A stretch of DNA of 64,000 bases from an uncultured Prolixibacteraceae bacterium (GCA_942493345.1 OW818695.1:2021719-2085718); one strand, 5' to 3'; positions 15,919 to 41,905 are shown, counted from the stretch's first letter. Notes: generated by a model not told the origin, from the letters alone. Numbers and translations: made by a program.

Positions 15919-15926
15919 TTTTTTTA

Positions 15927-22559: not shown

Positions 22560-23861
22560 GTGAAAAAAGTACTAATTATTACATATTACTGGCCTCCTTC
22601 CGGCGGAGCGGGAGTTCAGCGTTGGCTGAAGTTTGTAAAATATTTACCAGCTTTTGGGGTTCAGCCTGTTGTATTGACTGTTGATCCGGCTTATGCCAGC
22701 TATGCACAAACCGATGAAAGCCTGCAGAAAGAAGTGGCTCCTGAAGTGGAAGTGTACCGTACCCGAAGCTTTGAGTTGTACCAGCTTTACAGCCGCTTAT
22801 CGAAAAAAAAAGAGATCCCGTATGGAGGTTTTGCAAATGAAACACAGGCTTCGCTTTTTCAGAAAATAAGCCGGTTTGTGCGGGGCAATTTTTTACTGCC
22901 CGACCCACGAAAAGGATGGAACAAATTTGCCTACCGGAAAGCCATTGAATTGATCGCAGTCCATCAAATTGACACGGTTATTACAACCGGGCCGCCGCAT
23001 TCGACCCATCTGCTTGGTCTGAAACTTCAAAAGAAAACCGGTATCCGGTGGATTGCCGATTTGCGCGATCCCTGGACCGATATTTATTACTACAATCAGT
23101 TTTACCATACGGCTTTTGCCCGTCAGATCGATCGCCGGATGGAACGGCAGGTACTCGAAAAAGCCAATCACCTGATTACGGTGAGCAAAGATGTGATGCG
23201 CCTTTTTAGCCAAAAAACGGCCACTGATATCAGCCTGAAAACAAACATCCTTCCTAATGGTTTCGATGAGGATGATTTTGTCGGAAGGACGTTCAAGCCG
23301 GAAGAAAAATTTACGATCACCTATACGGGGACTATTTCTGAAACATACGATATTTCGAGCTTTACAGGCGCATTGGAAAAACTTGATAAATCAATTCTCA
23401 GCAAAATAAAAATTCGGTTTGTGGGGAAAGTACCGTCAGTGATTTCAACCCGCATAAAAAATAAATTTCCGGAGATGGAAGTGGAACTGGTTGGTTATGT
23501 CGATCATCTGAAGTCGGTTGATTATTTACTTCGCTCATCGCTTTTACTGCTTGTTATTCCGAAGGTTGAAAACAACGACGGAATACTCACCGGCAAATTT
23601 TTCGAGTACATGGCTTCGCGCAAACCGGTATTGGCCATCGGCCCGGTCAAAGGCGATCTGTCCGAAATCATCCGGGAAACCGGCAGTGGGCAAATCTTCG
23701 ACTATTCTGACGAGGAAGGAATCGGTAAGTTTATCAATGCTGCGTTTAATTCGGAACTGGAATCCGAAGCTAAAAATATTACGGATTACTCGCGAAAAGA
23801 CCTGACCGAAAAACTAAGTCGAATTATTATTTCAGCCGAAAACAAAACTAATTTTAGATAA
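22560..23861 (+). CDS. GT-B fold glycosyltransferase (GT4-like)
   Basis: 433-aa ORF with a GTG start. The N-terminus KKVLIITYYWPPSGGAGVQRWLKF is typical of this glycosyltransferase group. Confidence 0.75.
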   Translation: MKKVLIITYYWPPSGGAGVQRWLKFVKYLPAFGVQPVVLTVDPAYASYAQTDESLQKEVAPEVEVYRTRSFELYQLYSRLSKKKEIPYGGFANETQASLFQKISRFVRGNFLLPDPRKGWNKFAYRKAIELIAVHQIDTVITTGPPHSTHLLGLKLQKKTGIRWIADLRDPWTDIYYYNQFYHTAFARQIDRRMERQVLEKANHLITVSKDVMRLFSQKTATDISLKTNILPNGFDEDDFVGRTFKPEEKFTITYTGTISETYDISSFTGALEKLDKSILSKIKIRFVGKVPSVISTRIKNKFPEMEVELVGYVDHLKSVDYLLRSSLLLLVIPKVENNDGILTGKFFEYMASRKPVLAIGPVKGDLSEIIRETGSGQIFDYSDEEGIGKFINAAFNSELESEAKNITDYSRKDLTEKLSRIIISAENKTNFR

Positions 23862-23866
23862 AAAAA

Positions 23867-23901
23867 AGGAAATAGCCCGGAATCTTCCGTGACTATTTCC
23901 T
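23867..23901. terminator. Bidirectional stem-loop between convergent genes
   Basis: AGGAAATAG ... CTATTTCCT, a 9-bp perfect stem with an A-run upstream. It lies between the stops at 23861 (plus strand) and 23943 (minus strand). Confidence 0.5.
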
Positions 23902-23942
23902 TTGTGAAATTTCGTCATTAGAAATCTTTTTTCATATCAATA

Positions 23943-25322
23943 TCAAGGGCGCAGGTAGGCCCCTTTTGACAACAGTTCTTCGCGTAACTTTTCAACATTT
24001 ATTTTGGATGGGGCTATTCCGTCACGAACGGCCATTTTTGCTGCACGACCGGCTGCTTCGCCCATGGCCATGCAAGGAGCCATTACCCGTATTGCCGACA
24101 TTGCTTCATGTGTGGTTGATATGCTCCGTCCGGCAACCAGAAGATTTTCCACTTTTAGTGGAACCAGCGAACGATATGGTATATCGTAGCAGTCGCCACT
24201 CCATTCCAAGGTACATCCGCCGCCGTTCGGGTGATGCAAGTCGATCGGGTAGCTGGCAACTGCAATTGCGTCGTCGAATCTGCGGCAGCTTAAAATATCG
24301 TCGCGGGTCATTTCGTATTGACCGGAAATTCGTCTTGTTTCGCGAATACCGAGGAAGGGAGCCATCCGTGCAAAATGAGCTTTTTCAAAACCAGGCACAT
24401 AACCGATAAGGTATTTGATAATTACATCAACTTGTTTCCGGGCTTCGTATTCGCCATTGGTCAAACTAACGGGGTCTGTTCCATCAACTCCGCTGACGCG
24501 GCTCATGTTGATCCATGCTTCATCTTTTCTTACGCCTGTGATGATGATGGTGCGGTCTACTGTCAGTTTCAAGCCGTCGGCTTTGGCTTTTTGCATGATA
24601 TCTCTCAAACCAACCAATATAAAACGCGGGTTCTTCGCGTAATATTCGGCAGGAATGAAATCAGCAAAATAGGTTTCTGATTTTTCTGCCAGGCTTAGAC
24701 GAAGTTTTTCAATATCAACATTTCCCATGCTGAACATCAATGTTGGAGGTTGTACCCCGCCATTTTCATCGCCTTGCCCGCATGGAACGCCGGAACGCAA
24801 CGCAACGTCGGCGTCGCCGGTACAATCGATGATCACCTTGGCAAGGATCACTTCACGACCAGCTTTACTTTCAATGATAATTCCCTGTAACTGGTTCCCG
24901 TCCATAACGACTCCGGAACAGAATGTATAAAGCAATACCTCTACACCATTTTCTTTGAGAACCTCGAATGCAACCATTTTCACATCTTCCGGCTCGATGT
25001 ACGTGATGCTCATGTGAAGAGGGCATGGATGGTGTTTACTTGCACCTCCCCGTGCTTCCAACCGATCGATAAATTTCTGAGGAAGTCCCGCGATGATTTG
25101 GTTTCCTTTTTGTCCCAGAAAATCCAGGATTGGTAATCCGATGGTCAGGTTTCCACCTAAAAAGCTCCGGCTTTCTATCAGGGCAACGTTTAATCCATCT
25201 TCGGCCGCCGCCTGTGCTGCAATGATTCCCGATGGGCCTCCTCCTACCACCAGGACATCAACATTCATTCGTACCGGCAATCTTTTCTCCGGTTCAACGA
25301 TACTCATTATCTCTTTTCCCAT
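23943..25322 (-). CDS. FAD-dependent oxidoreductase
   Basis: 459 aa with an N-terminal dinucleotide-binding motif (DVLVVGGGPSGIIAAQAAAEDG). Confidence 0.85.
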   Translation of the reverse strand: MGKEIMSIVEPEKRLPVRMNVDVLVVGGGPSGIIAAQAAAEDGLNVALIESRSFLGGNLTIGLPILDFLGQKGNQIIAGLPQKFIDRLEARGGASKHHPCPLHMSITYIEPEDVKMVAFEVLKENGVEVLLYTFCSGVVMDGNQLQGIIIESKAGREVILAKVIIDCTGDADVALRSGVPCGQGDENGGVQPPTLMFSMGNVDIEKLRLSLAEKSETYFADFIPAEYYAKNPRFILVGLRDIMQKAKADGLKLTVDRTIIITGVRKDEAWINMSRVSGVDGTDPVSLTNGEYEARKQVDVIIKYLIGYVPGFEKAHFARMAPFLGIRETRRISGQYEMTRDDILSCRRFDDAIAVASYPIDLHHPNGGGCTLEWSGDCYDIPYRSLVPLKVENLLVAGRSISTTHEAMSAIRVMAPCMAMGEAAGRAAKMAVRDGIAPSKINVEKLREELLSKGAYLRP

Positions 25323-25487
25323 TTTCCTGTTTTTTTGTATCTGTCAAAACTAATTTTTTATACCTGTTATATCAACAGTTAAATAACACATATTGTCACT
25401 CCACGAAAGCGAAGAATCTTCGGTTCAACTCTAATTTACAACAGATTTTTCACTCCGTTCAGCATGACAAAACAATGTTGAGACACA

Positions 25488-26600
25488 CTACCAAAGTTTC
25501 ACTACCAACTGTTTATCTTGTCGGATCAGGCAATTGGTAAATGTTACGTTTGTTCCTGAAGGGATACTGACTTTTAATACTTTATTTGCGTACAAAGGAA
25601 TAGAATACACATAATTCAAAAACCTGATTTGGTATGTGATATCCGATTTATTGCAAATTTCTATTATTCCTTTTTCGCGGTTAACTATTTTTACTGAAAT
25701 TGACTTTTGGACAATTTCCTTGAGGTATTCTTCTTTTCCTGCCAGGCTATTCTCAAAATAGGCTACCGTTCTTCCTTCAAGAAGCGCCTCCTTGATGCCA
25801 TCGACAGAATGCTCTTTAACGAAAACCAATGTCATCGGGCGTTGAAGTTTTTCGCGGTAGGAATTCGCGCTGGCATAATGAAGGTCGGTATTGGCAAAAT
25901 AAGCAATTCCATATTCGTTGCACCAATCCAAAACCTTGGGATATAATTCAGACCCGTTGAATACCTCTACTCCACGTATTTTCTTTTGCGCGATCAGCTC
26001 TTTATGAATGGGGTACATCGTGCTGGTATCATTCGGCCATCCCGGATGGTTCCATACAAGATATGCCCCCTGGCTGACAGCTTCATTCACAGCGTCAAGT
26101 TCGTCGGGAACATTCAATTTATTTACATCCTGAATAAAAAGTGCATTGATGTGACCAAGCGGTTTCTTTCGAGTTATTTCGGCGCCCCGGACAACAAGCA
26201 TTCCCATTTCATTGCCCATTTCCTGTGCCATTTTTCCCGATTTGTTTAAATCAACGCGAACGATATCTTTGTATCTCTGGTTCTCAATGTGATCGGTAAT
26301 CGCGATGGCATCCAGCCCATCGGTCCACGCTTCGATTACCCGCATGGTTGGCAAAACCTGCCCATCGGAAAAGATTGTATGCATGTGAAAATCACATTTC
26401 AGCATTTCGTAGCCATCAATACTCGGAATGTTAATGTTGTACCGGTAGCTCATTAATTTCATCTGTTTCAGTCCCGGGTATTCATGAACATCCGCATTTT
26501 GGGTTTGGGCGCCTGCCTGCCAGAATATGCCTGAGAAGAAAACCGCGATCAGAACAGAGTGCATTTTTCTATGTCTCATATACTTAAAGTTTAAGGTCAT
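25488..26600 (-). CDS. Secreted PHP-domain phosphoesterase/phosphodiesterase
   Basis: 370 aa with a signal peptide. PHP metal-binding motifs are present (CDFHMHTIFSDGQ, AITDH, and later NTDLH). Confidence 0.8.
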   Translation of the reverse strand: MTLNFKYMRHRKMHSVLIAVFFSGIFWQAGAQTQNADVHEYPGLKQMKLMSYRYNINIPSIDGYEMLKCDFHMHTIFSDGQVLPTMRVIEAWTDGLDAIAITDHIENQRYKDIVRVDLNKSGKMAQEMGNEMGMLVVRGAEITRKKPLGHINALFIQDVNKLNVPDELDAVNEAVSQGAYLVWNHPGWPNDTSTMYPIHKELIAQKKIRGVEVFNGSELYPKVLDWCNEYGIAYFANTDLHYASANSYREKLQRPMTLVFVKEHSVDGIKEALLEGRTVAYFENSLAGKEEYLKEIVQKSISVKIVNREKGIIEICNKSDITYQIRFLNYVYSIPLYANKVLKVSIPSGTNVTFTNCLIRQDKQLVVKLW

Positions 26601-26615
26601 ATCTTTAATCTAAAA

Positions 26616-27566
26616 TCATTTTACTGGTATTACTAATTCGTTTTCGGTTTTTCCCGGAAAGGAAACCATAATCTGATTTTCCAGAAGCTTTATTTTTCGC
26701 CAGTTATTTGTACTTTGGGCCAGCGCACCCGTTTGAACCTGTACCATTTTTTTGTCTCCTTCGGAAGGGAAACTAGTAATCGTATTTTTATGGTTGTGTC
26801 CGGCAAAAATCAATTTGGCCGACGGATTCTTTGCCAGAGCAGAATAAAGTTCGTTGGAAGATCCTGGTTGAAGAACTTCCTCTGTTAAGGGAAGGTGCAT
26901 AAAAATAATTTCAATATCGTTTTCCGATTCATGTAATTGAGCATTCAACCAGTATAACTGGGGCTTGTCGATATATGGAATTTCGGTTGTATCGTCCGGA
27001 AGAAGTTGATAGAAACTATCGTCCAGAAAAATGAACCGGTAAGTTGTTTGGCCAACTTGAAACAACTGACTATAATAGGTCCCGTTTTTGAAGCAGGATA
27101 CGTTTTTTATCCAGGCAGCTCGTGCACGTCCGGAAAAATTCTGAGTATGTTTCAATTTGTTATTCTGCCAGTTGAACGAGAAAAGATCATGATTTCCGAG
27201 CGTAAGCAATACCGGAACCTGATAATTGCTGATGAGGTTGGAAAACTGTTCAGACTGGATATCCAGCATTTTTCCGTCCATTAACTCGGCCTCGAAGAAG
27301 TCGACCAGATCGCCGGTGGCAACCACCATGTTGCTGTTGGTTTTTTCGGGCATGGTTTGTAAAAATTGCCTCAACGAAATTTCGTCCGGCCTGTAATGGT
27401 TTCGGCTTTGTGCTAAATCATACTGGTAAATGTCCTGATGGAAAATTACATGCAAATCGGTGATATGCAGAAACGACAAAGTATCTGTCTGAGCCAAAAC
27501 GGTTCCGTTGATCAACAAAAAAAAGAAAAATGTCAATCGTTTTAATTTGAATTGCAATTTGTTCAT
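26616..27566 (-). CDS. Secreted metallophosphoesterase
   Basis: 316 aa with a signal peptide. Motifs present: ITDLHV, TGDLVD, LGNHDLF, FMHLPL, AGHNHKN. Confidence 0.85.
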   Translation of the reverse strand: MNKLQFKLKRLTFFFFLLINGTVLAQTDTLSFLHITDLHVIFHQDIYQYDLAQSRNHYRPDEISLRQFLQTMPEKTNSNMVVATGDLVDFFEAELMDGKMLDIQSEQFSNLISNYQVPVLLTLGNHDLFSFNWQNNKLKHTQNFSGRARAAWIKNVSCFKNGTYYSQLFQVGQTTYRFIFLDDSFYQLLPDDTTEIPYIDKPQLYWLNAQLHESENDIEIIFMHLPLTEEVLQPGSSNELYSALAKNPSAKLIFAGHNHKNTITSFPSEGDKKMVQVQTGALAQSTNNWRKIKLLENQIMVSFPGKTENELVIPVK

Positions 27567-27592
27567 GTCTGTTTTTTCTATTTAAATTTTTT

Positions 27593-28843
27593 CTATTTCG
27601 AAACAAGCGATTCTTTTGGAATCTCCGGTCGTATCATTTTCCACAAGATAAATAAAGCGAGAGGATGAAGAACGGCCATTACAATGAAAACCCAGGTAGT
27701 TCCCACACTTGTCATGTATTGCCCAATCAGATAATTAAAGATGACTGCGCCTGCGGCTCCAAATCCGCCTGCAATACCCAACACACTTGCCACATTGTTT
27801 ATCGGGAAAGTCTCGGCAATCAATACACTTTCAGTATATATCCAGCTCAGGGCTACGGCTGCCAAAATACTAAATTTAACGATGGTTACGGCAACGCCCA
27901 AGCTGTCAGGAATTAAAATTACCGGGGCTAAAAATGCCACATAACTTAACATGACTTTACGGGAACGCAAAGCAGGTTTTCCGCGACGGACCATCCAGTC
28001 GGACCATGCAGAAGAAGCAATTCCGCCCAAACTTGCCGCCATAAAAGGAATCCAGCCGATCATGCCCAGCTGGGAAAGGCTCAGTCCCGATTCTTCCATG
28101 AGAAATCCGGGAAGCCAGAATAAAATGAAATACCAGACCGGGTCGGTGGTAAAACGGATCAACACAATTCCCCACAAACTTCGTTTACTCCAGAGTTGCC
28201 CCCATGTAAAGGCGGGTGATTTTGCAGAATCACTTTCCGAAGATATTGTATCCTGGACATATCCGCGAGGCGGGTCTTTGTAAATCAGGAACCAAATCAA
28301 TGCAACAACAAGACCAACTACCCCCGGAATAATAAATGCTGCATGCCAGGAATAAGATATAACCAGCCAAGCGATTAAAGGCGGAGCGATAACGGAGCCA
28401 ATCGTGCCCCCTGCAACTGAAATGCTGTTGGCTGTTGCACGCAACCGCCCGGAAAACCATTTCGTAACTACCTTGATTTGGGCCGGGTAGGTTGTTGGTT
28501 CGGCCAAACCTAAAAGGCTTCTAAAAAAAGTAAATGGAAATAAAGTTCTTGCAATACCACTTCCGATTGAGCTTAACGACCACGTTATCACTCCCCAAAA
28601 CATGATTTTTCGGGCGCCAAATTTGTCAACCAGCCAGCCCGAAACAGGATACATCAGGGCATAACAAATAGTGAAAACATTAATAATTAAAGCGTATCCA
28701 ATATCGTCAAGCGAAAACTCCTCTTTCAGGATGGGTTTTAAAATTGAAACAACCTGCCTGTCCACATAGCTAAAAACAGTAATTATAAAAATTACCGCCA
28801 CAATAAACCATCGCCTTCTTTCAGGACTTAAGAATGATGACAT
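27593..28843 (-). CDS. MFS transporter, anion:cation-symporter-like (hexuronate or organophosphate type)
   Basis: 416 aa with about 12 hydrophobic segments. The N-terminal YVDRQVVSILKP motif is typical of the ACS/ExuT-like MFS subgroup. Confidence 0.8.
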   Translation of the reverse strand: MSSFLSPERRRWFIVAVIFIITVFSYVDRQVVSILKPILKEEFSLDDIGYALIINVFTICYALMYPVSGWLVDKFGARKIMFWGVITWSLSSIGSGIARTLFPFTFFRSLLGLAEPTTYPAQIKVVTKWFSGRLRATANSISVAGGTIGSVIAPPLIAWLVISYSWHAAFIIPGVVGLVVALIWFLIYKDPPRGYVQDTISSESDSAKSPAFTWGQLWSKRSLWGIVLIRFTTDPVWYFILFWLPGFLMEESGLSLSQLGMIGWIPFMAASLGGIASSAWSDWMVRRGKPALRSRKVMLSYVAFLAPVILIPDSLGVAVTIVKFSILAAVALSWIYTESVLIAETFPINNVASVLGIAGGFGAAGAVIFNYLIGQYMTSVGTTWVFIVMAVLHPLALFILWKMIRPEIPKESLVSK

Positions 28844-28901
28844 ATCTTTTTATTGATTGATTTTGAGTTCAGTTTATATTTTAAGTTGATGCTTATTCTA
28901 C

Positions 28902-30407
28902 TTATTCCTGTAAAGGAAGAGATTTTGTATAAATATTCCCAAACCGGTCGGTTACTTCTACTGTAATATTTCTGCCATTTTTCGATGGTTTCGCTGAAAA
29001 AAGATGTTCGGTCCGGGTCGGTTCCATACTACCTTTTTCTTCGGGCATACCGCTGCCATACATATTTTTATAAGCCAACGGATCGTATCCGGTATATTTT
29101 GCCATTTCACCTTTCTGGATTCCGTCTTCATACCATACAACTTTCCATCCGGAATCCCAGTTCCATACGTTGGCGATAATTTCATCGGGTCGGTCGGGAC
29201 TGCTGCCTTTTGGGTACAGCCTGAACTGATACGAAGGATCACCGCCTGTTGGTTTGTAATACCAGCGAATATCATTCCCGTTTACTTCATAGATGCCATA
29301 TCCGCCAGGTGTTCCATCGGTACAAATATCGCCGGTCCACCACGCGCTGCATACCGAGGCATGATTGTGTTCCATGCGGTTGTCGTGCTCTGCGGTTTCG
29401 TTGTAATGGGTGTGTCCCGACATAATATGTACCCGGTACGGTTCAATCAGCTTGTAAAGCTCGTTACGGTTGCCAACTGTCGCTGTTTCAAATTCTGTCC
29501 GGACAGCGCTTTTCAGATAAGTGATTTCATACGTAGGAATATGCAGGGATATAACCAGTGTACTTCCTTCGGGAACATATTGCAAATCTTTTTTCAGCCA
29601 TTGCAGTTGTTCTTTCGAAATATAACCAATGTATTTTCGTCGTTTATCTTTGTACGCTTCATCATCTCCCTTAAACAACACATCGTTTAACACCACGTAG
29701 TGTATTTTGCCCCGGTTAAAAGAATAATAGGTTGGCCCGAATGCATCACTGAATTGCTTTGTTGCCATACTTTTTGATGTCGCGGTATAATCAATATCGT
29801 GATTTCCGACAGCCTGAAAGAAGGGAATTCCCATCTGGGTTACGGCTGTGGCATAATCCGCATATAAATTAAATTTTTCAAACACAATATCACCACAGGT
29901 GATGCCGTGCACAGGGATGTTGCCCAGTGTTTTGATATGTGCGGCTGCATCCGGGGCTGATTCGGTTTGCATCCGGTGGACATCGATGTCTGTTTGTACC
30001 TGGGGATCGGCCCAAACGACAAAAGCGTGCCGGGTGTCGTCGATCTCATTTTTCTGTAAACTGAAATTGATTATCTGCTTTTCTTGGCCGGAAGCTATCG
30101 GTTCATAAAACTTTGCTATTCCTCCGATATTGGGAATTTTGTATCCGGATGGCAGGGAAATAAAAACAAAGTTAGCTCCATGATTAACTTTCAACCGGTA
30201 ATTCCCCGACTGATCGGTTTGTGTTGTTTCGTATCCATCGCTTACCACTACTCCGGAAATACCGGCTCTGTTGTTTCTTACATTTCCCTGAACGATGGAA
30301 TACGATTTTGCCCCTGTATTTTTATCAGGGTTGGGAAAAATAATAGATGAATAGGAAAACAGGACTAAAAAAAGCCAGATTCCTGTCAGAAAAGTTTTTC
30401 TCAACAT
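28902..30407 (-). CDS. Calcineurin-like phosphoesterase with N-terminal beta-sandwich and C-terminal accessory domains
   Basis: 501 aa with a signal peptide. The N-terminal part reads GVVVSDGYETTQTDQSGNYRL. Motifs present: VWADPQ, CGDIVFE, VGNHDIDY, SLHIPTY, SGHTHYNE. It is a homolog of 7422-9026. Confidence 0.85.
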   Translation of the reverse strand: MLRKTFLTGIWLFLVLFSYSSIIFPNPDKNTGAKSYSIVQGNVRNNRAGISGVVVSDGYETTQTDQSGNYRLKVNHGANFVFISLPSGYKIPNIGGIAKFYEPIASGQEKQIINFSLQKNEIDDTRHAFVVWADPQVQTDIDVHRMQTESAPDAAAHIKTLGNIPVHGITCGDIVFEKFNLYADYATAVTQMGIPFFQAVGNHDIDYTATSKSMATKQFSDAFGPTYYSFNRGKIHYVVLNDVLFKGDDEAYKDKRRKYIGYISKEQLQWLKKDLQYVPEGSTLVISLHIPTYEITYLKSAVRTEFETATVGNRNELYKLIEPYRVHIMSGHTHYNETAEHDNRMEHNHASVCSAWWTGDICTDGTPGGYGIYEVNGNDIRWYYKPTGGDPSYQFRLYPKGSSPDRPDEIIANVWNWDSGWKVVWYEDGIQKGEMAKYTGYDPLAYKNMYGSGMPEEKGSMEPTRTEHLFSAKPSKNGRNITVEVTDRFGNIYTKSLPLQE

Positions 30408-30428
30408 CGTCGATTTATTTATACAAAA

Positions 30429-30554
30429 GCTGTCTCAAAAGTTTTGTGCCAAGTGATCGTGAACTTGCTCCAGTATTTCAACGCATTGAACGTCGAACCC
30501 CGAAATAAATTCGGGGTTGATAGGTTCAATGCGTATAATGACTTTTGAGATAGC
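30429..30554. repeat. Hairpin (MITE-like) intergenic repeat, copy B
   Basis: The termini GCTGTCTCAAAAGT (30429-30442) and ACTTTTGAGATAGC (30541-30554) match at 13 of 14 positions. There are nested inner stems: ACGCATTGAAC/GTTCAATGCGT (30481-91 / 30524-34) and AACCCCGAA/TTCGGGGTT (30496-504 / 30510-18). Confidence 0.7.
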
Positions 30555-30565
30555 CCAGAGATCTT

Positions 30566-32317
30566 TTAGTAGCCTGGATTTTGCTCCAGATTTGGGTTGG
30601 TATCACGTTCCTGCTGAGGAATAGGCCACAACTCATCTTTGTTTGTTTTGAAAACAACCTGCTGTGTGGTAAAATATTTTATTGCCTCATCATATTTGTA
30701 TATTGGAGAATAGTTTTCATCAATTTCTGTCAATACTCCTTTTGTCCATGCATTACCAGCCCGGTTTAAATAGATATATCCATTCATAATCTGTGGTGCT
30801 ATATTCCATCTGCGGATATCATACCAACGTAATCCATCGTTACACAATTCTATTTTACGTTCATAACGCAATGCAGTACGTAACTGAGCTTGTGTCATAT
30901 TTCTTGTAAGTATTGGCATTCCTGCCCTTTTACGTACCAGGTCGATGGCATCGTATACAGTTGCATCAATACTGTTTGCCTCAATTTTTGCTTCAGCATA
31001 AAGAAGTAATAATTCGGCATAACGGAATATCCCCACATTCAGGTCGGAAACTCCTCTCGATGAATTTGTAAGATAATCGGCATTATCCGTATGTTTTCGC
31101 CAATAATACCCGCTAAATGTGCGATATGCATTGGTCGCATCGGTATTGGTTACCGATAACGGGATAGTGCTTTCGCCATTGATAACCGGCCAGTAATTGT
31201 TTACTTTTTTATACGTTGCATTTGGCTCGAATTGAAATTCCATTAAGCGTGAATGCGGGCGGGCACAGTACATATCGAGACGAGGATCCCTATTGATAAA
31301 CGGTTTTGTCGCATCATATAACGGCGATTGGTCGATAGGAAGTCCATCGAGGCATTGGTATGAATCAATGAGATTTTGAGTTGGCCCCCAGTAAGCACAA
31401 CCTTTTCCCAAGCGGGAAGCCATGTAATAACCTTGATTATGCGTGTTTCCGGTAATTGTCTGGTTATATTCAACGACCCAGATCCATTCCTTACTGCTGG
31501 CATATCCGGCATATCCAAATATATTTGAACATTCAGGTTCGCCAATATCATAGGTTTTATTACAATAGTTCAATGAATTATCGAACGGGGTCAAATCGTA
31601 AACTCCTTTTGACAAATCGATTGCTTTTGCAGCAGCAGTGGCTGCAACCGTATATTGTCCGCTGTATAATGCAACACGTGCCTTGAGCATATATGCAGCC
31701 ACGCTTCCAGCTCGCACATTGCCGTATGCTGTTTGAGATACCGGCAGATAGTCGGCAACAGCCGTCATTTCATTAATAATCCACTGTTGAATATCACCTT
31801 TAGGGGTGCGGGGTAAATCACTGTCGTTCAAGCCCAAAGATTTAAGAACCAAAGGGACATCTCCATACGTCTCGATTAGTTGAGAGTAACAATATGCACG
31901 CACCACTCGCAGCTCGGCATCAATCTGATTATATGAATCTTCCGGCATATCCGATTTAATATTTTCCAGGTTGTCGAGTACTGCATGGCACCGGGCAATT
32001 GTTTTGTAATGATAATTCCATGGACTTATGGCCAACGCATTGTCTGTCGTTAAAGAACTGGTAATTGGCGATGTATAATTGGTTCCCGGGCGTGCATAAC
32101 CGATATCCGTTATATTATCCATTACATGAAGAAACGGGGTACTTGAAGCATCGAGCAAAGAGAGTCCTTTATAAGCAGCATACAACCCCATTGTTGCTTC
32201 TTCCTCTGTTGCAGGGAAAGTTCCCGTGGTCGGTCCGTTTAAGGGAACGCGATCGAGATCACATCCTGTGAATAGCATGCTAATTAAAACTATTCCTAAA
32301 AATATATTTCTTTTCAT
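30566..32317 (-). CDS. SusD/RagB-family outer-membrane nutrient-binding lipoprotein
   Basis: 583 aa with a lipobox (LFTGCD). It lies downstream of a SusC gene. The C-terminus reads WPIPQQERDTNPNLEQNPGY. Confidence 0.9.
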   Translation of the reverse strand: MKRNIFLGIVLISMLFTGCDLDRVPLNGPTTGTFPATEEEATMGLYAAYKGLSLLDASSTPFLHVMDNITDIGYARPGTNYTSPITSSLTTDNALAISPWNYHYKTIARCHAVLDNLENIKSDMPEDSYNQIDAELRVVRAYCYSQLIETYGDVPLVLKSLGLNDSDLPRTPKGDIQQWIINEMTAVADYLPVSQTAYGNVRAGSVAAYMLKARVALYSGQYTVAATAAAKAIDLSKGVYDLTPFDNSLNYCNKTYDIGEPECSNIFGYAGYASSKEWIWVVEYNQTITGNTHNQGYYMASRLGKGCAYWGPTQNLIDSYQCLDGLPIDQSPLYDATKPFINRDPRLDMYCARPHSRLMEFQFEPNATYKKVNNYWPVINGESTIPLSVTNTDATNAYRTFSGYYWRKHTDNADYLTNSSRGVSDLNVGIFRYAELLLLYAEAKIEANSIDATVYDAIDLVRKRAGMPILTRNMTQAQLRTALRYERKIELCNDGLRWYDIRRWNIAPQIMNGYIYLNRAGNAWTKGVLTEIDENYSPIYKYDEAIKYFTTQQVVFKTNKDELWPIPQQERDTNPNLEQNPGY

Positions 32318-32332
32318 AACCGTCTTAGTCTT

Positions 32333-35300
32333 TTAAAATTTTAGATCAACACCAAACGAAAACACTTTAACTTGAGGATAATATGCACCACTTCCCAACG
32401 ATACTCCATCTTCTGCGCCTGCATTATAATTAATCTCGGGGTCATAACCATTCCAGAAATCGGTAAAGGTTAGCAGATTTTGTGCGTTTACATATACATA
32501 CAGATTACTGATTCCAAAATTGTCAAGCAAATTTTTAGGTAGATCATAACCTAACTGCAGGTTTTTTAATCTCATGTATGTAGCGCTCTTCATCCAGTAA
32601 TCTGAATTTTGAGTATTGTTCGTCGATGTAATTGAAGGCCTTGGAAATGCTGCATCTCTGTTTTCTTCAGTCCAGTAATCGAGTTGCCATGTTTTTATGG
32701 CGCTTGAGTTTGCACAAGGAATTACATAATGAGAACTCAGATAACCGTCAACCTTGCCAACACCCTGGAAAAAGGCATTCATTTTGAACCCTTTCCAAGC
32801 TAGGTTCAGGTTCATTCCATAGGTGTAGCGCGGAATCGTGTTTCCAATAATAGTTTTATCTTCATCGGTAATTTTTCCGTCAGCCATCGGGTTGTTATTT
32901 TCGTCGAATGCTCCGGCAATATCTTTGTATTTTATATCTCCCGGATGCAATGTTCCGAATTGCACAGATCCTGCATTAATTTCTTCCTGCGATTGATATA
33001 GTCCTTCCGAAATGTAGCCGTAGATGGAATTAACCGCATACCCTTCTTGTTGACGCAGCAATGTGCCGGAAGTTTGTCCGCGCATATCGGTAATAACATT
33101 TTTTACATCCGAGAAATTGAGTTCTACTCCCAGTTTAAAATCGCCCCATTGGTTATCGTAAGTTGCACCAAAATCCCATCCGGTATTGCGAACTTTTGCA
33201 GCATTCTGGTAGGGTGCGTTCAGCCCGGTCAGCTGAGAGGTGTATAATGTCAATAAAATTCCATCGGTGTCTTTTCGGTACCAATCGCCGGTAAGAGAAA
33301 AATGGTTGAATAAATTAATATCGATTCCGACTCCTGCCATTTGGGTTTCTTCCCATTTAAGATCGGGATTTGCCATGTCGTTTAAAGCCACCAATTGATA
33401 AATCTGTTTCCCCATTGAAATGCTTCCAACGGACAGTTGGGATATGTACGGGTAATAGGAGCTGCCAATATTTTGATTTCCAAGTTTACCCCATGATGCG
33501 CGCAATTTCAGATGATCGATATAATCTTTTGTTTTTTCCATAAATGGTTCTTCTGAGATGCGCCAAGCTGCAGAAAAAGAAGGGAATGTTGCCCATCGGT
33601 TATTGCTGCTAAACCGCGAAGAACCATCATATCTTAAGTTAGCCTCAAAAAGGTAACGGTCTTTGTAGTCGTAATTGAACCGGCCAAAGCCAGAAACCAG
33701 GATCCATTGGGCCTGAGTACCATTATTATCTTTTGTTTCGTTATCAGCGCCGGCAGCAAGTACCTCATACGTGTCATATGTATAGTCGCGCCTGTAACCC
33801 ATCAGGTATTTTTCATCATACGTTTCTCTTGATGTACCAACCATGAGTCCGAAAGAATGATCTTTATATTCTTTAACCGTATTCGCAAAAAACTGATAGT
33901 TCCCAAAGAAATAACGATAAGCGGTTTCGGTCAGGTCTGTATACGTATATGCTGCACCAGCTTCACTTCCGTCATCATTGTATGTCATTACACTTTTTGA
34001 AAAAGTATGTGCATTTCTTGTTCTGTACCTGGGTGCAATTACCCCTGTAAGAGTTATCCATTTAGCAGGTTTCAAATCAACCGAAAGATTGCCAAGAAAT
34101 TCGAGGTTGTTCGTTTTTCTGTTTCCTCCGTCTTCGATTAAGCCAATCGGATTAATTTTAACCCACCCTTCCGACCAAAGTCCATTCCGTCTGATCGGGA
34201 TATTGGTAGGCATACGTCCGAGATAATTCCAAACATCACCTTCTGTTGCAATTTGTAATCGATCGCTATTGCTGAACGATAAGTCAACTTTTATTGATAA
34301 TTTGTCATTTGGCTTAATGTCCATATTATTACGAAAGACGTAGCGTTCGAATCCTGTATTTTTTATTATACCGTCCTGACTGCTATAACTGAATGATGGC
34401 ATTATATGTATTTTATCTGAATTTGCCATTAACGAAATGAAATGATTGTGGGTAAACCCGGATCCACTAAGGGTTGCTTTTTGCCAATCATAGTTGGACG
34501 GATCTTCCGCATATTTTTCTCTAAATTCAGCAATTTCCGTTTCGCTATACAAATTATATCCATTGTCATTCATGTTTGCTGCGTTAAAAACATTCATAAA
34601 TGTTTCTCCATCAGTAACTTTGGGAATATCAGTCGCTTCCTGTTTCCCGATATACCCTTTGTAGTTGACTGCGAATTTATCTTTAGAAGCTCGTTTTGTT
34701 GTAACTAAAATAACTCCGTTGGCGGCACGTGAACCATAAATAGCTGCCGATGCTGCATCTTTCAATACCGAAATTGATTCAACAAGATTCGCATCAACCA
34801 TGTCGAGCGAACCGGCAATTCCATCGATTAGAACGAGAGGAGAGCAATCGGAACCTCCAAATGAATTGATCCCACGAATACGAATCTGTCCTCCATCACC
34901 TCCAGGCGAACCAGACTGAGTAGTAACAGTCACTCCCGGAGCCATTCCCTGCAATGTGGCAGATGTTGATAGAATAGGACGTCGTTCCAGTTGCTGAGCT
35001 CCAATTGAAGATACAGACCCGGTGAGGTTCACTTTCTTTTGTGTTCCATATCCAATTGCAACAACTTCTTCCAACCCAATGGTTTCCTCCTCCATTGTTA
35101 CGTTTACGATTGGTTGGCCGGTAAAAACGATTGACTGTGTTTGCATGCCGACAAATGAAAAGATGAGGGTTGCATCCGGAACAACAGCATTAAGCAAATA
35201 GTTTCCATCGGCATCCGTAATTGTGCCGTTGGTTGTGCCTTTTATTGACACTGAAACACCCGGCAGTGAAATTCCGGAAGAATCGGAGACCTTCCCTTTT

Positions 35301-35698
35301 ACTTGTTTCTGCTGTTGAATGGCCGACTGTTTTTCCGGCGACAGAAGCATGATATGACGATCTTCAATCTCATATTTTATACCAGTACCCGAAAATACCG
35401 TTTTCATGATTTCTTCGATGCCCTGATCTTGTATTGAAATGTTGATTTTCCGATCCAAATCAATGAATTCGGAACTATATGCAAATCGGTATTTACTTTG
35501 GTTCTCAATAGCCTGTAATACATCGCTTACCTTTACATTCTGCATGTCAAGGTTGAGTTTGGTACTTTGGCTGTACGAACTGGCAGTAACCTGCATAAGG
35601 CCCAGTAAGAGAAAGAAAAACGTAAGTCTCATAATCTTTCCTGTTTTAGTTTTAACAAAAGGGGGCCAGAAACCCCGGATCCCTGATTTTTTTTTCAT
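32333..35698 (-). CDS. SusC/RagA-family TonB-dependent transporter with an N-terminal anti-sigma signalling extension
   Basis: 1121 aa. It has an STN-like N-terminus (VSDVLQAIENQSKYRFAYSSE), a carboxypeptidase-regulatory-like domain, a plug (VAIGYGTQKKVN) and a barrel ending in GVDLKF. Confidence 0.92.
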   Translation of the reverse strand: MKKKSGIRGFWPPFVKTKTGKIMRLTFFFLLLGLMQVTASSYSQSTKLNLDMQNVKVSDVLQAIENQSKYRFAYSSEFIDLDRKINISIQDQGIEEIMKTVFSGTGIKYEIEDRHIMLLSPEKQSAIQQQKQVKGKVSDSSGISLPGVSVSIKGTTNGTITDADGNYLLNAVVPDATLIFSFVGMQTQSIVFTGQPIVNVTMEEETIGLEEVVAIGYGTQKKVNLTGSVSSIGAQQLERRPILSTSATLQGMAPGVTVTTQSGSPGGDGGQIRIRGINSFGGSDCSPLVLIDGIAGSLDMVDANLVESISVLKDAASAAIYGSRAANGVILVTTKRASKDKFAVNYKGYIGKQEATDIPKVTDGETFMNVFNAANMNDNGYNLYSETEIAEFREKYAEDPSNYDWQKATLSGSGFTHNHFISLMANSDKIHIMPSFSYSSQDGIIKNTGFERYVFRNNMDIKPNDKLSIKVDLSFSNSDRLQIATEGDVWNYLGRMPTNIPIRRNGLWSEGWVKINPIGLIEDGGNRKTNNLEFLGNLSVDLKPAKWITLTGVIAPRYRTRNAHTFSKSVMTYNDDGSEAGAAYTYTDLTETAYRYFFGNYQFFANTVKEYKDHSFGLMVGTSRETYDEKYLMGYRRDYTYDTYEVLAAGADNETKDNNGTQAQWILVSGFGRFNYDYKDRYLFEANLRYDGSSRFSSNNRWATFPSFSAAWRISEEPFMEKTKDYIDHLKLRASWGKLGNQNIGSSYYPYISQLSVGSISMGKQIYQLVALNDMANPDLKWEETQMAGVGIDINLFNHFSLTGDWYRKDTDGILLTLYTSQLTGLNAPYQNAAKVRNTGWDFGATYDNQWGDFKLGVELNFSDVKNVITDMRGQTSGTLLRQQEGYAVNSIYGYISEGLYQSQEEINAGSVQFGTLHPGDIKYKDIAGAFDENNNPMADGKITDEDKTIIGNTIPRYTYGMNLNLAWKGFKMNAFFQGVGKVDGYLSSHYVIPCANSSAIKTWQLDYWTEENRDAAFPRPSITSTNNTQNSDYWMKSATYMRLKNLQLGYDLPKNLLDNFGISNLYVYVNAQNLLTFTDFWNGYDPEINYNAGAEDGVSLGSGAYYPQVKVFSFGVDLKF

Positions 35699-35760
35699 AA
35701 TTTTGATCTGTTTTTAAAGGGTTGATAATATTGTCATTTGCCGATGACATTTTAACCTCA

Positions 35761-35782
35761 GGAAAGTGTTGCCGCACTTTCC
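35761..35782 (-). promoter_or_regulatory. Conserved stem-loop between the FecR stop and the SusC start (copy 2)
   Basis: GGAAAGTG TTGCCG CACTTTCC, 8 nt past the FecR stop codon. It differs from 15897-15918 by a single loop base. Confidence 0.6.
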
Positions 35783-35789
35783 TGTTTTT

Positions 35790-36773
35790 TTATTTTGCAC
35801 TTTTTAGTGGGTTATATTTAAGTTTTATTAGTTCACCTTCCTGTACTACCTTTATTGGTGCAATTTTTTTCATCATTAGGAGTACCTCTGGCAGCGATTC
35901 GCCTTCTATGCTGAAGGTAAACGGAATATTTCTCACCTGCGGATTGGCTTCAAATTTCTGATTGAATCTCTTTTCAAGTTTCAGGATCAACTGTTCCAGC
36001 GGCAGCTCGAAAATATGCATCGTCCCGTTGCGCCACGACGTGTAATGCACGGGATTAACTTTTATTTTTTCAATGGTCATTTCTTTTTTATTGAACCGGG
36101 CCATTTCTTCGGGGACTAGTTGTTCCAAAAGATTGCTGTTTTCCGAGCGAATGTTTACTGAACCTTCTTCCAGCACTACTTCCATTGTACCCGAATCGCC
36201 GTAATTTGAAACGCCGAATCGCGTTCCGGTAACCTCCACTTTTAACGGACCCATATCAACGATAAAAGGCATTTTTTTGTCTTTTGAAACAGAAAAAAAA
36301 GCTTCACCATCAACTTTTATATCCCGGTTATTTATGCCGTACAGGTTATTGTACCGGAGTTTTGTTCCTGCATTGATCCACACTTCCGAGCCATCAGGCA
36401 AAGTCATTCCGGAAACCTGCCCGTAATCGGTATATATTTCGGTATATTTCAGTTCTGTACGGGCATTGAACAAAGAGGTAACCGCCAGAATTCCGCCTAG
36501 TCCGATCACGAGCAAAACAATTGCGGCATATTTGTACAGCTGCATCAGTTTAAAATATTTCGAGGATTGTTGCTTTTCCTGAATCCTTCCGCCAAGCCTG
36601 ATTTGTGCAAGATCGTATTGCTGACTGGAGCTTCCGAAATTTTTTGTCCACCATTCATTTTTTATCGAATCGAAAACCGATTGATTATTCCCAATCCGGA
36701 GCCAATGAAGTAAGTCGCGTTGTTCTTCATTGGACAATTTTCCTTCCAGGTATTGTTGAATTTTCTTTTCCAT
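35790..36773 (-). CDS. FecR-family anti-sigma factor with no adjacent sigma gene
   Basis: 327 aa with one TM segment (YAAIVLLVIGLGGILAV) and a FecR-like periplasmic domain. The next upstream gene (36948, plus strand) is unrelated. Confidence 0.88.
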   Translation of the reverse strand: MEKKIQQYLEGKLSNEEQRDLLHWLRIGNNQSVFDSIKNEWWTKNFGSSSQQYDLAQIRLGGRIQEKQQSSKYFKLMQLYKYAAIVLLVIGLGGILAVTSLFNARTELKYTEIYTDYGQVSGMTLPDGSEVWINAGTKLRYNNLYGINNRDIKVDGEAFFSVSKDKKMPFIVDMGPLKVEVTGTRFGVSNYGDSGTMEVVLEEGSVNIRSENSNLLEQLVPEEMARFNKKEMTIEKIKVNPVHYTSWRNGTMHIFELPLEQLILKLEKRFNQKFEANPQVRNIPFTFSIEGESLPEVLLMMKKIAPIKVVQEGELIKLKYNPLKSAK

Positions 36774-40016: not shown

Positions 40017-40239
40017 ACGTGAAAAAATATTCGGTAACAGACATTCATCAAACGAAAAAACCGGATAAGCGATTTTTCCATCACAAAATAACATTTTTTT
40101 ACCTGAAACCCAGCCGCTCATCAATTTTCCTTTTTTTATCCGACTTCAAACCATTTTTTATACCTTTTCTGAAATAATTATATTTGTGGCGACACTTGGA
40201 AAAACAAGCCATGTGTTTTATTTTTCAAAGTTTCAAAAT

Positions 40240-41049
40240 ATGAAGAAGATCACATTTCTATTCATTTTTGTCTTTTTAATGATATTCACTTCTTGCGGGA
40301 AGCCAAATAAATATGTACTGATTGAAACCAGTTATGGCAACATAAAAGTCAGACTGTATAAAGAAACCCCGGAACACCAGAAGAATTTTATTAAGCTTGT
40401 AAAGCAAGGGTATTTTGACGAGCAACTTTTTCACCGGGTCATCCAAAATTTCATGATCCAGGGTGGCGATCCGAAATCGAAAAATGCTCAACCGGGTGTC
40501 CGATTGGGAGAAGGTGAACCGGGTTATACGATTTCGGCGGAAATCAACCAACAGCTTTTTCATAAAAGGGGCGCTCTGTCGGCAGCTCGTCAGAGCGATG
40601 AAATAAATCCCGAAAAACGGTCGTCGGGTTCGCAGTTTTTTATTGTTCAGGGGGAACCATTTACCAAAGAAGCACTTGATGCTATGCAGCAATCAAAAAA
40701 TTCGGAACGGGTACAGCGCATTTTCATCCGGTTATTTAATGAGAACAAGGAAGAAATAACGCAACTTCGCAAAAGTGGCGACAGAGAAAAATTCAATGCC
40801 CGCATTGACGAACTTCAGGAAAAAGCTGAAACCGAAGCAAAACAGGCGGGCGATTCTATTTTCAGTCCCGAACAGATTGAGGCGTATACAACGATCGGAG
40901 GTTGTCCTTCGCTCGATGGTGAATATACTGTTTTTGGCGAAGTTGTTGAAGGACTTAATGTAATTGACAAGATTGCCGCCGAAGCAACCGATCATTATGA
41001 CCGTCCCGAAAAGGATATAAAATTTAAAGTAACTGTCGTAAAAAAATAA
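40240..41049 (+). CDS. Cyclophilin-type peptidyl-prolyl isomerase, lipoprotein, with a coiled insert
   Basis: Lipobox IFTSCG, FHRVIQNFMIQGGDP, and a C-terminal FGEVVEGLNVIDKI. The start is taken at MKKITFLF (40240) inside the longer ORF from 40186. Confidence 0.88.
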   Translation: MKKITFLFIFVFLMIFTSCGKPNKYVLIETSYGNIKVRLYKETPEHQKNFIKLVKQGYFDEQLFHRVIQNFMIQGGDPKSKNAQPGVRLGEGEPGYTISAEINQQLFHKRGALSAARQSDEINPEKRSSGSQFFIVQGEPFTKEALDAMQQSKNSERVQRIFIRLFNENKEEITQLRKSGDREKFNARIDELQEKAETEAKQAGDSIFSPEQIEAYTTIGGCPSLDGEYTVFGEVVEGLNVIDKIAAEATDHYDRPEKDIKFKVTVVKK

Positions 41050-41050
41050 A

Positions 41051-41863: not shown

Positions 41864-41905
41864 ACATATTTCAAGCGACATCAAATACTTTTAAAAACAG
41901 AACCA

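Follow-up and report, generated by a model that had tools for sequence, protein, structure and literature searches.

Introduction

Loci in which a SusCD pair is accompanied by phosphoesterases have already been published under the name 'Pus' (PMC8115612; bioRxiv 10.64898/2026.09.03.749221). In these systems, known since 2020 and with experimental proof for phosphoinositol lipids following in 2026, organophosphates enter through SusCD-like PusCD complexes and undergo hydrolysis in the periplasm, and Pus1 of Flavobacterium johnsoniae combines ECF/anti-sigma genes and PusCD with a calcineurin-like phosphoesterase said to resemble GIPC-PLC (PMC8115612; 10.64898/2026.09.03.749221). The definition of the type, a SusCD-like pair with exported phosphomono- or phosphodiesterases and no CAZymes (PMC8115612), also describes the gene set analysed here, in which three phosphoesterases with signal peptides lie downstream of SusCD.

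This gene set, locus 2, belongs to a window (the whole stretch of DNA analysed, 64,000 nucleotides) that holds another SusC/SusD locus, locus 1. Locus 2 is probably an anti-sigma/STN-controlled SusCD organophosphate utilisation locus, Pus-like and distinct from a classical glycan PUL, in which a phosphodiester cargo, perhaps a polyol-phosphate diester, would be cleaved in the periplasm, imported by an MFS transporter and oxidised by a flavoprotein. Nutrients linked by phosphodiester bonds, and not ordinary polysaccharides, are its most likely target.

Gene content and layout

Eight co-directional minus-strand genes span positions 23943-36773 (ORF calls; domains by Pfam and NCBIfam). Together with the associated non-coding elements, they are as follows:

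35790-36773, minus strand: FecR-type anti-sigma factor, 327 aa, one transmembrane segment (PF04773, 7.5e-16; PF16344)
35760-35783, minus strand: 24-nt hairpin AGGAAAGTG-N6-CACTTTCCT in the FecR-SusC gap, conserved in related loci L006, L008 and L019
32333-35698, minus strand: SusC/RagA TonB-dependent transporter, 1121 aa (TIGR04056, 917 bits), with STN, CarboxypepD_reg (CarbopepD_reg_2), Plug and barrel
30566-32317, minus strand: SusD-family surface lipoprotein, 583 aa (PF07980, 3e-50; PF14322), signal peptide ending in LFTGC with the lipobox Cys
30481-30534, minus strand: long stem-loop in the 158-nt spacer between the SusD and MetNC genes (spacer MFE -52.1 kcal/mol, z -6.3)
28902-30407, minus strand: MetallophosN/Metallophos/MetallophosC phosphoesterase (MetNC), 501 aa, signal peptide, predicted periplasmic (PF16371, PF16370)
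27593-28843, minus strand: inner-membrane MFS transporter, probably of the anion:cation symporter (ACS) type, 416 aa (TIGR00893, 1e-61)
26616-27566, minus strand: binuclear metallophosphoesterase (Met316), 316 aa, signal peptide, predicted periplasmic (PF00149, 7e-18)
25488-26600, minus strand: two-domain PHP-like metal-dependent phosphoesterase, 370 aa, signal peptide, predicted periplasmic (PDB 3E38, 2.4e-69)
23943-25322, minus strand: PF12831 FAD-dependent oxidoreductase, 459 aa, no signal peptide, predicted cytoplasmic (PF12831, 6e-123)
23857-23903, minus strand: terminator-like hairpin (outer stem of 11 bp, then a T8 run), closing the predicted operon and common to a convergent GT4 gene

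The array given in the preliminary description (FecR, SusC with STN, SusD, MetallophosN/C, MFS, metallophosphoesterase, PHP, FAD) was recovered in full, with all eight ORFs in place on the minus strand and domains that agree with their labels, as were the hairpin 3' of SusD and the terminator 3' of the FAD gene. The reported absence of glycoside hydrolases and lyases likewise stands, as neither Pfam nor NCBIfam returned a GH, PL or CE (carbohydrate esterase) match for any of the eight proteins. The same statement is less safe for locus 1, because three paralogues of 541-551 aa there show sub-threshold GH47/C5-epimerase matches.

The single-strand arrangement, intergenic gaps of 15-165 nt and the closing hairpin, which a consensus terminator scan missed because of its long loop, constitute an operon-like layout, from which we infer a common transcript. 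A gap of 15 nt separates susC from susD, and the larger spacers lie after SusD (158 nt, with the strong hairpin) and before FAD (165 nt). The stem-loop after SusD is kept in orthologous loci L006 and L008 and is probably an attenuator or an mRNA-stabilising hairpin.

Regulation

Two parts of a trans-envelope signalling route are found, namely an N-terminal STN domain on SusC (PF07660, 3e-10) and the FecR-type anti-sigma factor, which shares 30% identity with its counterpart in locus 1. No ECF sigma gene adjoins the locus 2 FecR, there being no minus-strand ORF of at least 80 aa upstream, and tblastn of the window with related sigma factors gave a sole match at 16986-17513, in locus 1. A sigma gene beside the anti-sigma gene is also missing in orthologous loci L006 and L008, and is present in related loci L005, L019, L020 and L032. 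The FecR-SusC hairpin recurs at 15896-15919, in the corresponding gap of locus 1 (two matches against 0.02 expected by chance).

Phosphoesterases

MetNC, an accessory gene showing clean presence/absence and missing from the closest orthologous locus (L006), has 4210 homologues, weak PDB matches to purple acid phosphatase and a first metal motif, DPQ, as in purple acid phosphatases. Its proposed homology to the protein encoded at 7422-9026 was borne out (26% identity, E 1e-44). In Met316, the five metal motifs DxH/GD/GNH(D/E)/H/GHxH are complete (D37-x-H39, G85-D86, G124-N125-H126-D127, H224, G256-H257-x-H259) and invariant among 31 sequences. A Foldseek search with its AF2 model (pLDDT 90.4) returned Lmo2642 as the top match, together with PAPs, Rv0805, GpdQ and acid sphingomyelinase; the closest folds are those of the phosphodiesterases Lmo2642 (a cyclic-nucleotide phosphodiesterase), Rv0805 and GpdQ.

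The PHP protein is a clear homologue, over residues 53-327, of PDB 3E38, a Bacteroides two-domain PHP-like phosphoesterase from structural genomics that supplies the fold but no function, and its N-terminal H-M-H metal motif (CDFHMHT) aligns to that structure. It scores 25.4 bits against PF02811 (cut-off 26.4) and 1.4e-17 for a CehA/McbA metallohydrolase domain (NCBIfam), and six related loci have the gene at the equivalent place. Weak NCBIfam matches were to SpdA (a 2',3'-cyclic nucleotide phosphodiesterase), to RNase RNM and to a nucleoside bisphosphate phosphatase.

Transporter and flavoprotein

The best family for the MFS transporter is TIGR00893 (ACS), at 209 bits against a curated cut-off of 395, and its best PDB match is the ACS-type D-galactonate:H+ symporter DgoT (6E9N, 6e-37). 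The coupling and anion-binding triad of DgoT, D46/R47 in TM1 and E133 in TM4, corresponds to D28/R29/E115 and is kept in all type-A orthologues. Unlike DgoT, the transporter carries an extra conserved TM7 pair, R230/D234, and galactonate pathway genes are absent from locus 2. The proposed uptake of a small anionic product by this permease is thus supported by its proximity to DgoT, the retained triad, and the signal peptides that all three phosphoesterases have and the flavoprotein lacks. An assignment as a GlpT/UhpT organophosphate:Pi antiporter was rejected, since GlpT residues K80/H165/R269 align to Y/G/W, while true GlpT-like paralogues in L007, L012, L013 and L026 retain all three. In some loci a GlpT-like transporter co-occurs with the ACS-type protein, and the cargo of the latter is therefore not glycerol-3-phosphate there.

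The flavoprotein is the most conserved component of the locus, exceeding 70% identity between Bacteroidota classes, covering positions 1-416 of 416 in the PF12831 profile with 411.6 bits (cut-off 27) and carrying its GxGxxG dinucleotide motif as G27-G-G-P-S-G32. Searches by sequence and fold found no close PDB relative and no characterised one.

Conserved synteny and neighbouring genes

The MFS-Met316-(PHP)-FAD module adjoins SusC/SusD in about 15 loci across four Bacteroidota classes, which upholds the earlier claim of a dedicated pathway over chance association and supplies the synteny whose absence elsewhere would have spoken against it. The order SusC-SusD-[MetNC]-MFS-[Met316]-[PHP]-FAD-[EEP] recurs in Mariniphaga, Gaoshiqia (two copies), Draconibacterium and several Prolixibacteraceae MAGs, and also in Niastella, Flavisolibacter and Sinomicrobium. 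Identities across loci are 69-78% for FAD and 60-95% for MFS, against 23-90% for the SusCD pairs; by this comparison, the module is conserved while SusCD pairs are swapped. In other genomes, the cassette itself includes families also present in locus 1 (the Met356 or 'c9' type and MetallophosN/C).

Neighbours in related loci include GDPD and Exo_endo_phos (EEP) proteins (11 loci each), a DeoR/GlpR-type regulator (5 loci, with GlpD in 4), a true GlpT-like antiporter adjoining GDPD, an RbtT/DalT polyol transporter (9 loci; TIGR00897, 556 bits), a G1P-dehydrogenase-like Fe-ADH_2, a ribulokinase (NF003154, 722 bits) and, in L013, a Zn-ADH with ribulose-phosphate 3-epimerase. The EEP, GDPD and c9 enzymes there are predicted to be lipoproteins or Tat/Sec-exported, and the FAD protein cytoplasmic.

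Proposed function and alternative explanations

In the mechanism we favour, SusD and SusC would capture a soluble phosphodiester-containing compound, imported with TonB-derived energy and probably either small or a flexible oligomer, since locus 2 encodes no surface endo-enzyme; the STN domain would signal, via FecR, to an ECF sigma factor whose gene lies elsewhere. The Sec-exported, metal-dependent MetNC, Met316 and PHP proteins would cleave phosphoester bonds in the periplasm, an H+-coupled DgoT-like symporter would carry the anionic organic product into the cytoplasm, and the flavoprotein would oxidise it there, a step best read as a placeholder because this protein has no characterised relative. 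Our best guess at the substrate class, where the preliminary description named no substrate, is glycerol-phosphate or ribitol-phosphate diesters, be it polyol-phosphate polymers of the teichoic-acid type or glycerophosphodiester head groups. Its basis is the orthologous cassettes of other genomes, as none of their polyol or glycerol-phosphate genes occurs within the 64-kb window. A bolder proposal, which we regard as tentative and rather doubtful, is that the conserved pair of ACS-type MFS and PF12831 flavoprotein lies at the heart of a so far undescribed pathway, spread across the phylum Bacteroidota, that consumes the polyol-phosphate polymers (wall and lipoteichoic acids) of Gram-positive walls; the flavoprotein would then perform a new oxidation of an imported polyol-phosphate-derived anion, and diverse SusCD pairs and esterase sets (MetNC, Met316, PHP, EEP, GDPD) would be tuned to differing teichoic-acid chemistries. 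Literature searches turned up no link between teichoic acids and SusCD systems, and such a pathway, if real, would be the first 'teichoic-acid utilisation locus'.

Among the alternatives, a target of phospho(inositol)lipid or sphingolipid head groups like those of Pus1/Pus2 (glycerophosphoinositol, GIPC inositol-phosphoglycans or other glycerophosphodiesters), with the metallophosphoesterases acting as PLC/PLD-type enzymes, is rather unlikely. The parallel with Pus1, with its ECF/anti-sigma genes, PusCD and GIPC-PLC-like calcineurin-like phosphoesterase, speaks for it; glycerophosphodiesters would account just as well for the GDPD, GlpD and GlpT-like neighbours, Met316 has acid sphingomyelinase among its structural matches, the neighbouring Exo_endo_phos proteins belong to a family that includes sphingomyelinase-type enzymes, and the Niastella cassette has a ceramidase gene 7 kb away. 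However, neither PI-PLC (PF16670) nor PhoA occurs in locus 2 or in related cassettes, inositol catabolic genes are found in none of about 30 related loci, and the ribitol-type genes (RbtT, ribulokinase, RPE) would be left unexplained. Improbable in our judgement is the joint processing, with locus 1, of phosphorylated glycans, for example phosphomannan from yeasts or fungi or polymers containing GlcNAc-1-P, with glycosidases supplied in trans: most cassette-bearing loci lack any glycosidase, and the three paralogues of locus 1, a locus 7-20 kb away, have no supra-threshold GH assignment, PDB match or NCBIfam match, despite their sub-threshold matches, an NAGPA phosphodiester glycosidase at 50327-51184, a GH123 upstream of MFS in one related locus and the hairpin common to both loci.

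Oligonucleotide import for nucleic-acid scavenging, with metallophosphoesterase, PHP and EEP-type nucleases and nucleotidases as the degrading enzymes, appears very improbable. The PHP, Metallophos and Exo_endo_phos superfamilies all include nucleases and nucleotidases, and the weak SpdA, RNase RNM and bisphosphate phosphatase matches and the Lmo2642 fold point the same way, but no related locus carries a nucleoside transporter, nucleoside phosphorylase or ribose genes, the neighbours being glycerol-phosphate and polyol genes, and an ACS-type anion symporter and a flavoprotein would have no obvious role in nucleoside salvage. Hardly credible, finally, is a chance association of SusCD with functionally unrelated downstream transcription units; the two larger spacers and the Pseudopedobacter genome, in which an MFS-FAD-EEP module lacks a SusCD pair within 10 kb, are compatible with it, yet adjacency is kept in the four classes despite differing SusCD pairs, all genes share one strand, and the PHP-FAD spacer is only 33-39 nt in orthologous loci, so that conserved synteny has, on present comparisons, already largely refuted it.

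Comparison with known systems

Locus 2 shares with the classical ECF-sigma/anti-sigma PULs of Bacteroides that target host glycans the order of FecR-type anti-sigma factor, SusC with an STN domain and SusD lipoprotein, and likewise a hairpin following susD. It carries phosphoesterases in place of any CAZy-type glycoside hydrolase, lyase or esterase, and for this lack of CAZymes it was rejected as a classical PUL despite its well-supported, adjacent susC and susD. Related cassettes also resemble the GlpQ (GDPD)/GlpT/GlpD route that salvages teichoic acids and glycerophosphodiesters, carrying GDPD, a GlpT-like antiporter, GlpD and a GlpR-type repressor beside the module; GlpQ is reportedly a stereospecific teichoicase. 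These genes are absent from the window, and the glp systems of Gram-positive bacteria or E. coli have nothing equivalent to outer-membrane import by SusCD or to the MFS/flavoprotein pair.

A close likeness is to Pus1/Pus2 of F. johnsoniae, which have a SusCD-like pair beside phosphoesterases exported by Sec in place of CAZymes, control of the ECF/anti-sigma type and the same model of outer-membrane import followed by periplasmic phosphoester hydrolysis. Orthology was nevertheless rejected on enzyme content, as locus 2 has neither PI-PLC nor the PhoA-GDPD fusion and relies on MetallophosN/C, Met316 and PHP esterases. It further differs in that its sigma factor is not adjacent and in its conserved ACS-type MFS and cytoplasmic PF12831 flavoprotein, additions that therefore suggest catabolism of the organic moiety, beyond phosphate release.

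Gene content of locus 2

The second SusC/SusD locus of the window, locus 2, comprises eight co-directional open reading frames on the minus strand spanning 23943-36773, separated from FecR to the FAD protein by gaps of 91, 15, 158, 58, 26, 15 and 165 nt and presumably co-transcribed. The domain labels proposed in the preliminary description were each confirmed by Pfam and NCBIfam for all eight proteins, as follows in gene order.

Locus 2, minus strand: FecR anti-sigma factor (Pfam/NCBIfam)
Locus 2, minus strand: SusC with STN, CarboxypepD_reg and Plug domains (TIGR04056, 917 bits)
Locus 2, minus strand: SusD (Pfam/NCBIfam), with a lipobox at its N-terminus
28902-30407, minus strand: MetNC, a 501-aa MetallophosN/C protein (Pfam/NCBIfam) with a Sec signal peptide
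Locus 2, minus strand: MFS transporter, best family the ACS subfamily TIGR00893 (1e-61)
Locus 2, minus strand: Met316, a 316-aa Metallophos protein (Pfam/NCBIfam) with a Sec signal peptide
Locus 2, minus strand: PHP-like protein with a Sec signal peptide, a clear homologue of structural-genomics entry 3E38 (2.4e-69)
23943-25322, minus strand: PF12831 FAD-dependent oxidoreductase (full-length match, 412 bits), without a signal peptide

All three phosphoesterases thus carry Sec signal peptides as read from their N-termini. The proposed homology of MetNC to the metallophosphoesterase of the other SusC/SusD locus (locus 1, 7422-9026) was borne out at 26% identity (E 1e-44), as was the reported lack of glycoside hydrolases and lyases, such domains being found by Pfam and NCBIfam in none of the eight proteins. 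The terminator suggested after the FAD gene corresponds to a hairpin followed by T8 downstream of the stop codon. No ECF sigma gene adjoins the locus 2 FecR gene, an Rfam scan of 23-38 kb returned no known RNA family, and a sigma-70 promoter scan did not rise above shuffled background.

A conserved catabolic module with variable SusCD pairs

Approximately 30 related loci were gathered from a genome-collection scan with alignment of the 316-aa esterase, look-ups of MetNC and FAD homologues, and tblastn with ORF clustering. The closest named homologues of locus 2 proteins belong to Mariniphaga and other Prolixibacteraceae, and the nearest locus, L006 of the Prolixibacteraceae MAG UBA12447, shares flanking genes with the window and is 90% identical in SusC/SusD, 95% in the MFS, 80% in the PHP protein and 78% in the FAD protein. 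The MetallophosN/C gene is present in another related locus, L008, and absent from L006 (window 28902-30407 versus L006 8543-8738), where the SusD-MFS spacer joins the 5' part of the window SusD-MetNC spacer to the 3' part of the MetNC-MFS spacer; MetNC is therefore an accessory gene with clean presence or absence, situated after the post-SusD hairpin and ahead of the MFS leader.

Across the collection, the recurrent array reads SusC-SusD-[MetNC]-MFS-[Met316]-[PHP]-FAD-[Exo_endo_phos], with the following carriers.

Mariniphaga anaerophila
Gaoshiqia hydrogeniformans, two copies
Draconibacterium orientale
About eight Prolixibacteraceae/Bacteroidales MAGs
Niastella and Flavisolibacter (Chitinophagia)
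Sinomicrobium (Flavobacteriia), the MFS being replaced by a Na+/solute symporter

In Pseudopedobacter (Sphingobacteriia), an MFS-EEP-FAD-EEP module (EEP, Exo_endo_phos) lies beside three glycerophosphodiester phosphodiesterase (GDPD) genes and lacks a SusCD pair within 10 kb. The cassette thereby spans four Bacteroidota classes, and its recurrence in synteny with SusCD upholds the earlier proposal of a dedicated rather than chance association. Identities across these loci range from 69 to 78% for the flavoprotein and from 60 to 95% for the MFS, as against 23% to 90% for the SusC/SusD pairs; since flavoprotein and MFS are far more alike than the SusCD pairs, the catabolic module is the conserved unit, to which varied SusCD pairs are attached. 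PusD, from the SusCD-type phosphate utilisation (Pus) loci of Flavobacterium johnsoniae, has likewise been reported to be polyphyletic (10.64898/2026.09.03.749221).

Phosphoesterases, transporter and flavoprotein

All five binuclear metal motifs of Met316 are invariant among 31 homologues, and its confident AF2 model (pLDDT 90.4) is nearest in fold to Lmo2642, purple acid phosphatases, Rv0805, GpdQ and acid sphingomyelinase (TM 0.5-0.63), so that the model places it as a generic metallophosphodiesterase fold with no specific assignment. Its family is small (257 matches); that of MetNC, whose first motif, DPQ, is purple-acid-phosphatase-like, is large (4210 matches).

The core MFS aligns best with DgoT and retains D46, R47 and E133. 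A GlpT-like identity was rejected for this protein, as the phosphate-binding residues K80, H165 and R269 are missing in an alignment with a GlpT reference sequence. The GlpT-like antiporter proper is a second MFS, distinct from the core DgoT-like one, that adjoins GDPD in related loci; in the same comparison, it keeps K80/H165/R269 in L007 (14714-), L012 (10130-), L013 (6249-) and L026 (16149-), and these residues mark it in all four as a predicted true organophosphate:Pi antiporter. Where this transporter and the ACS-type MFS co-occur, the cargo of the latter must be some anion different from glycerol-3-phosphate.

The flavoprotein had no PDB relative by sequence beyond the Rossmann motif, and a Foldseek search of its AF2 model (pLDDT 74.8) against PDB retrieved only generic two-domain flavoproteins (TM < 0.5) and no functional analogue; no literature on it was found. 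Its invariant features comprise H97-x2-C100-x2-H103, H363-H364...C370 and many arginines, together with a nearly invariant C378, the His/Cys motifs (residues 97-103 and 363-378) falling within low-confidence loops of the model. These residues would suit an anionic substrate and perhaps a metal site; within this PF12831 subfamily, the His/Cys motifs may constitute a site for metal binding or redox chemistry. A 665-aa homologue, P0126, was considered as a Rosetta-stone fusion and rejected, being an internal duplication or chimera of the N-terminal half.

Neighbouring genes and substrate

GDPD and Exo_endo_phos phosphoesterases each occur beside the module in 11 loci, the latter as lipoproteins or Tat-exported proteins that matched only uncharacterised PDB entries. 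Further recurrent neighbours include a DeoR/GlpR-type repressor with GlpD; a glycerol-1-phosphate-dehydrogenase-like Fe-ADH_2 protein and a HAD-IIA phosphatase; an RbtT/DalT/CsbX polyol transporter in nine loci (556 bits, above cut-off); a ribulokinase (722 bits, above cut-off); and a block of a 2-hydroxyacid dehydrogenase, two FGGY kinases and a His_Phos_1 protein, while L013 holds a Zn-dependent polyol dehydrogenase and a ribulose-phosphate 3-epimerase. The theme common to these neighbours is phosphodiesterase-fed metabolism of glycerol phosphate and pentitols (ribitol-type). Teichoic-acid-type polymers have this composition, and glycerophosphodiester lipid head groups share it in part.

None of these polyol or glycerol-phosphate accessory genes lies within the window, and any substrate assignment therefore reaches locus 2 through orthology of the core cassette. 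That its substrates are specifically polyol phosphates of the teichoic-acid type is accordingly a tentative proposal, and one we consider rather doubtful.

Hairpins and the link between the two loci

The hairpin described after SusD is a strong stem-loop in the SusD-MetNC spacer (-52 kcal/mol, z -6.3), but it occurs once in the window and its description as a repeat was rejected. The actual repeat is a 24-nt hairpin, AGGAAAGTG-N6-CACTTTCCT, which follows an A-run on the coding strand and is present between FecR and SusC in each locus (15896-15919 and 35760-35783). These are its two matches in 64 kb, where chance predicts 0.02; the hairpin is also conserved at the corresponding junctions of the related loci L006, L008 and L019, and may serve both loci as a common regulatory or terminator element.

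Between the two loci, FecR and SusC are 30% and 34% identical, respectively. Locus 1 has its own sigma gene, which locus 2 lacks, and its families Met356 ("c9") and MetallophosN/C are integral to the cassette in other genomes. These observations support a functional link between the loci, and a sigma factor common to both is possible.

The PHP-FAD spacer (25323-25487) is 165 nt long in the window as compared with 33-39 nt in L006, L008, L009 and L019, and contains small hairpins; some 24 nt before the FAD start codon it also has a TAGTTTTG motif, which could be a Bacteroidetes-type -7 box.

Other features of the window

Within locus 1, three paralogous proteins of 541-551 aa are encoded on the minus strand (4000-5625, 5697-7352 and 9064-10707; DNA repeats D1-D5). 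Their Pfam matches, to GH47 and the C5-epimerase C-terminal domain, are all sub-threshold, and PDB and NCBIfam yielded none; the proteins may represent an unassigned (alpha/alpha)6-type glycan-active family, which leaves the absence of glycoside hydrolases uncertain for locus 1. Outside both SusCD loci, a NAGPA-family "phosphodiester glycosidase" (50327-51184, minus strand; PF09992, 1.6e-30) is a third phosphodiester-related function of the window. A separate sugar-catabolic cluster (54898-59534, minus strand) contains a Sugar_tr MFS (PF00083), a DUF4432 protein and an FGGY kinase; at 22% identity, the last is no more than a distant relative of the FGGY kinases found with the cassette in other genomes. 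Three tandem cyclophilin-type peptidyl-prolyl isomerase genes (40186-43240, plus strand), the third with a lipoprotein signal, show internal DNA similarity corresponding to repeat family D3, and a cytochrome c552 gene (NrfA-type nitrite reductase; 45772-47520, minus strand; PF02335, 1.6e-177) points to a capacity of the organism for respiring nitrite to ammonium.

Proposed mechanism and significance

In the general model, which we consider probable, a soluble phosphodiester compound would be imported by SusD/SusC, with STN and FecR passing a signal to an ECF sigma factor whose gene lies elsewhere; the compound would then be hydrolysed by the three periplasmic metal-dependent phosphoesterases, and an anionic organic product would enter via the H+-coupled MFS to be oxidised by the flavoprotein. 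The analysis demonstrates the genes present, their predicted localisation, intact motifs, the type of transporter and the conserved linkage, and from these co-transcription, the sequence of steps, the class of substrate and the chemistry of the flavoprotein are inferred.

Much phosphorus and carbon in sediments, soils and guts is present as organic phosphodiesters, among them teichoic acids, nucleic acids and the head groups of lipids. SusCD systems were long regarded as glycan importers. To our knowledge, organophosphate import has been shown for one SusCD system only, PusCD1/2, the SusCD-like pairs of the Pus loci. The present cassette is unlike PusCD1/2 in content, its best-conserved parts being a flavoenzyme without assigned function and an anion symporter, a phylum-wide and uncharacterised MFS/PF12831 module for which teichoic-acid-type polymers are a possibility. 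Knowing the substrate of this pair would give function to a large PF12831 subfamily and to 3E38-type PHP proteins, and would uncover the route by which Bacteroidota recycle an important class of anionic polymers; the cultured carriers (Mariniphaga, Gaoshiqia, Draconibacterium, Niastella and Flavisolibacter) make the question directly testable.

Comparison with known systems

The term Pus locus was introduced in 2020 for SusCD-like pairs in linkage with phosphoesterases (PMC8115612), and in 2026 growth on phosphatidylinositol and glycerophosphoinositol was shown to depend on PusCD1/2, hydrolysis being periplasmic (10.64898/2026.09.03.749221). The cassette itself is not described in the literature found on PF12831, on teichoic acid with SusC/SusD or on the gene combination, and a GIPC-PLC paper (PMC11496612) gave no usable domain information for comparison. 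Locus 2 lacks the CAZymes of a classical PUL and is a Pus-type organophosphate SusCD locus, which by analogy would operate in a mode similar to that of Pus1/Pus2. Unlike these, it has neither PI-PLC nor PhoA and is not their orthologue, whereas it carries the conserved transporter/flavoprotein pair that is missing from both.
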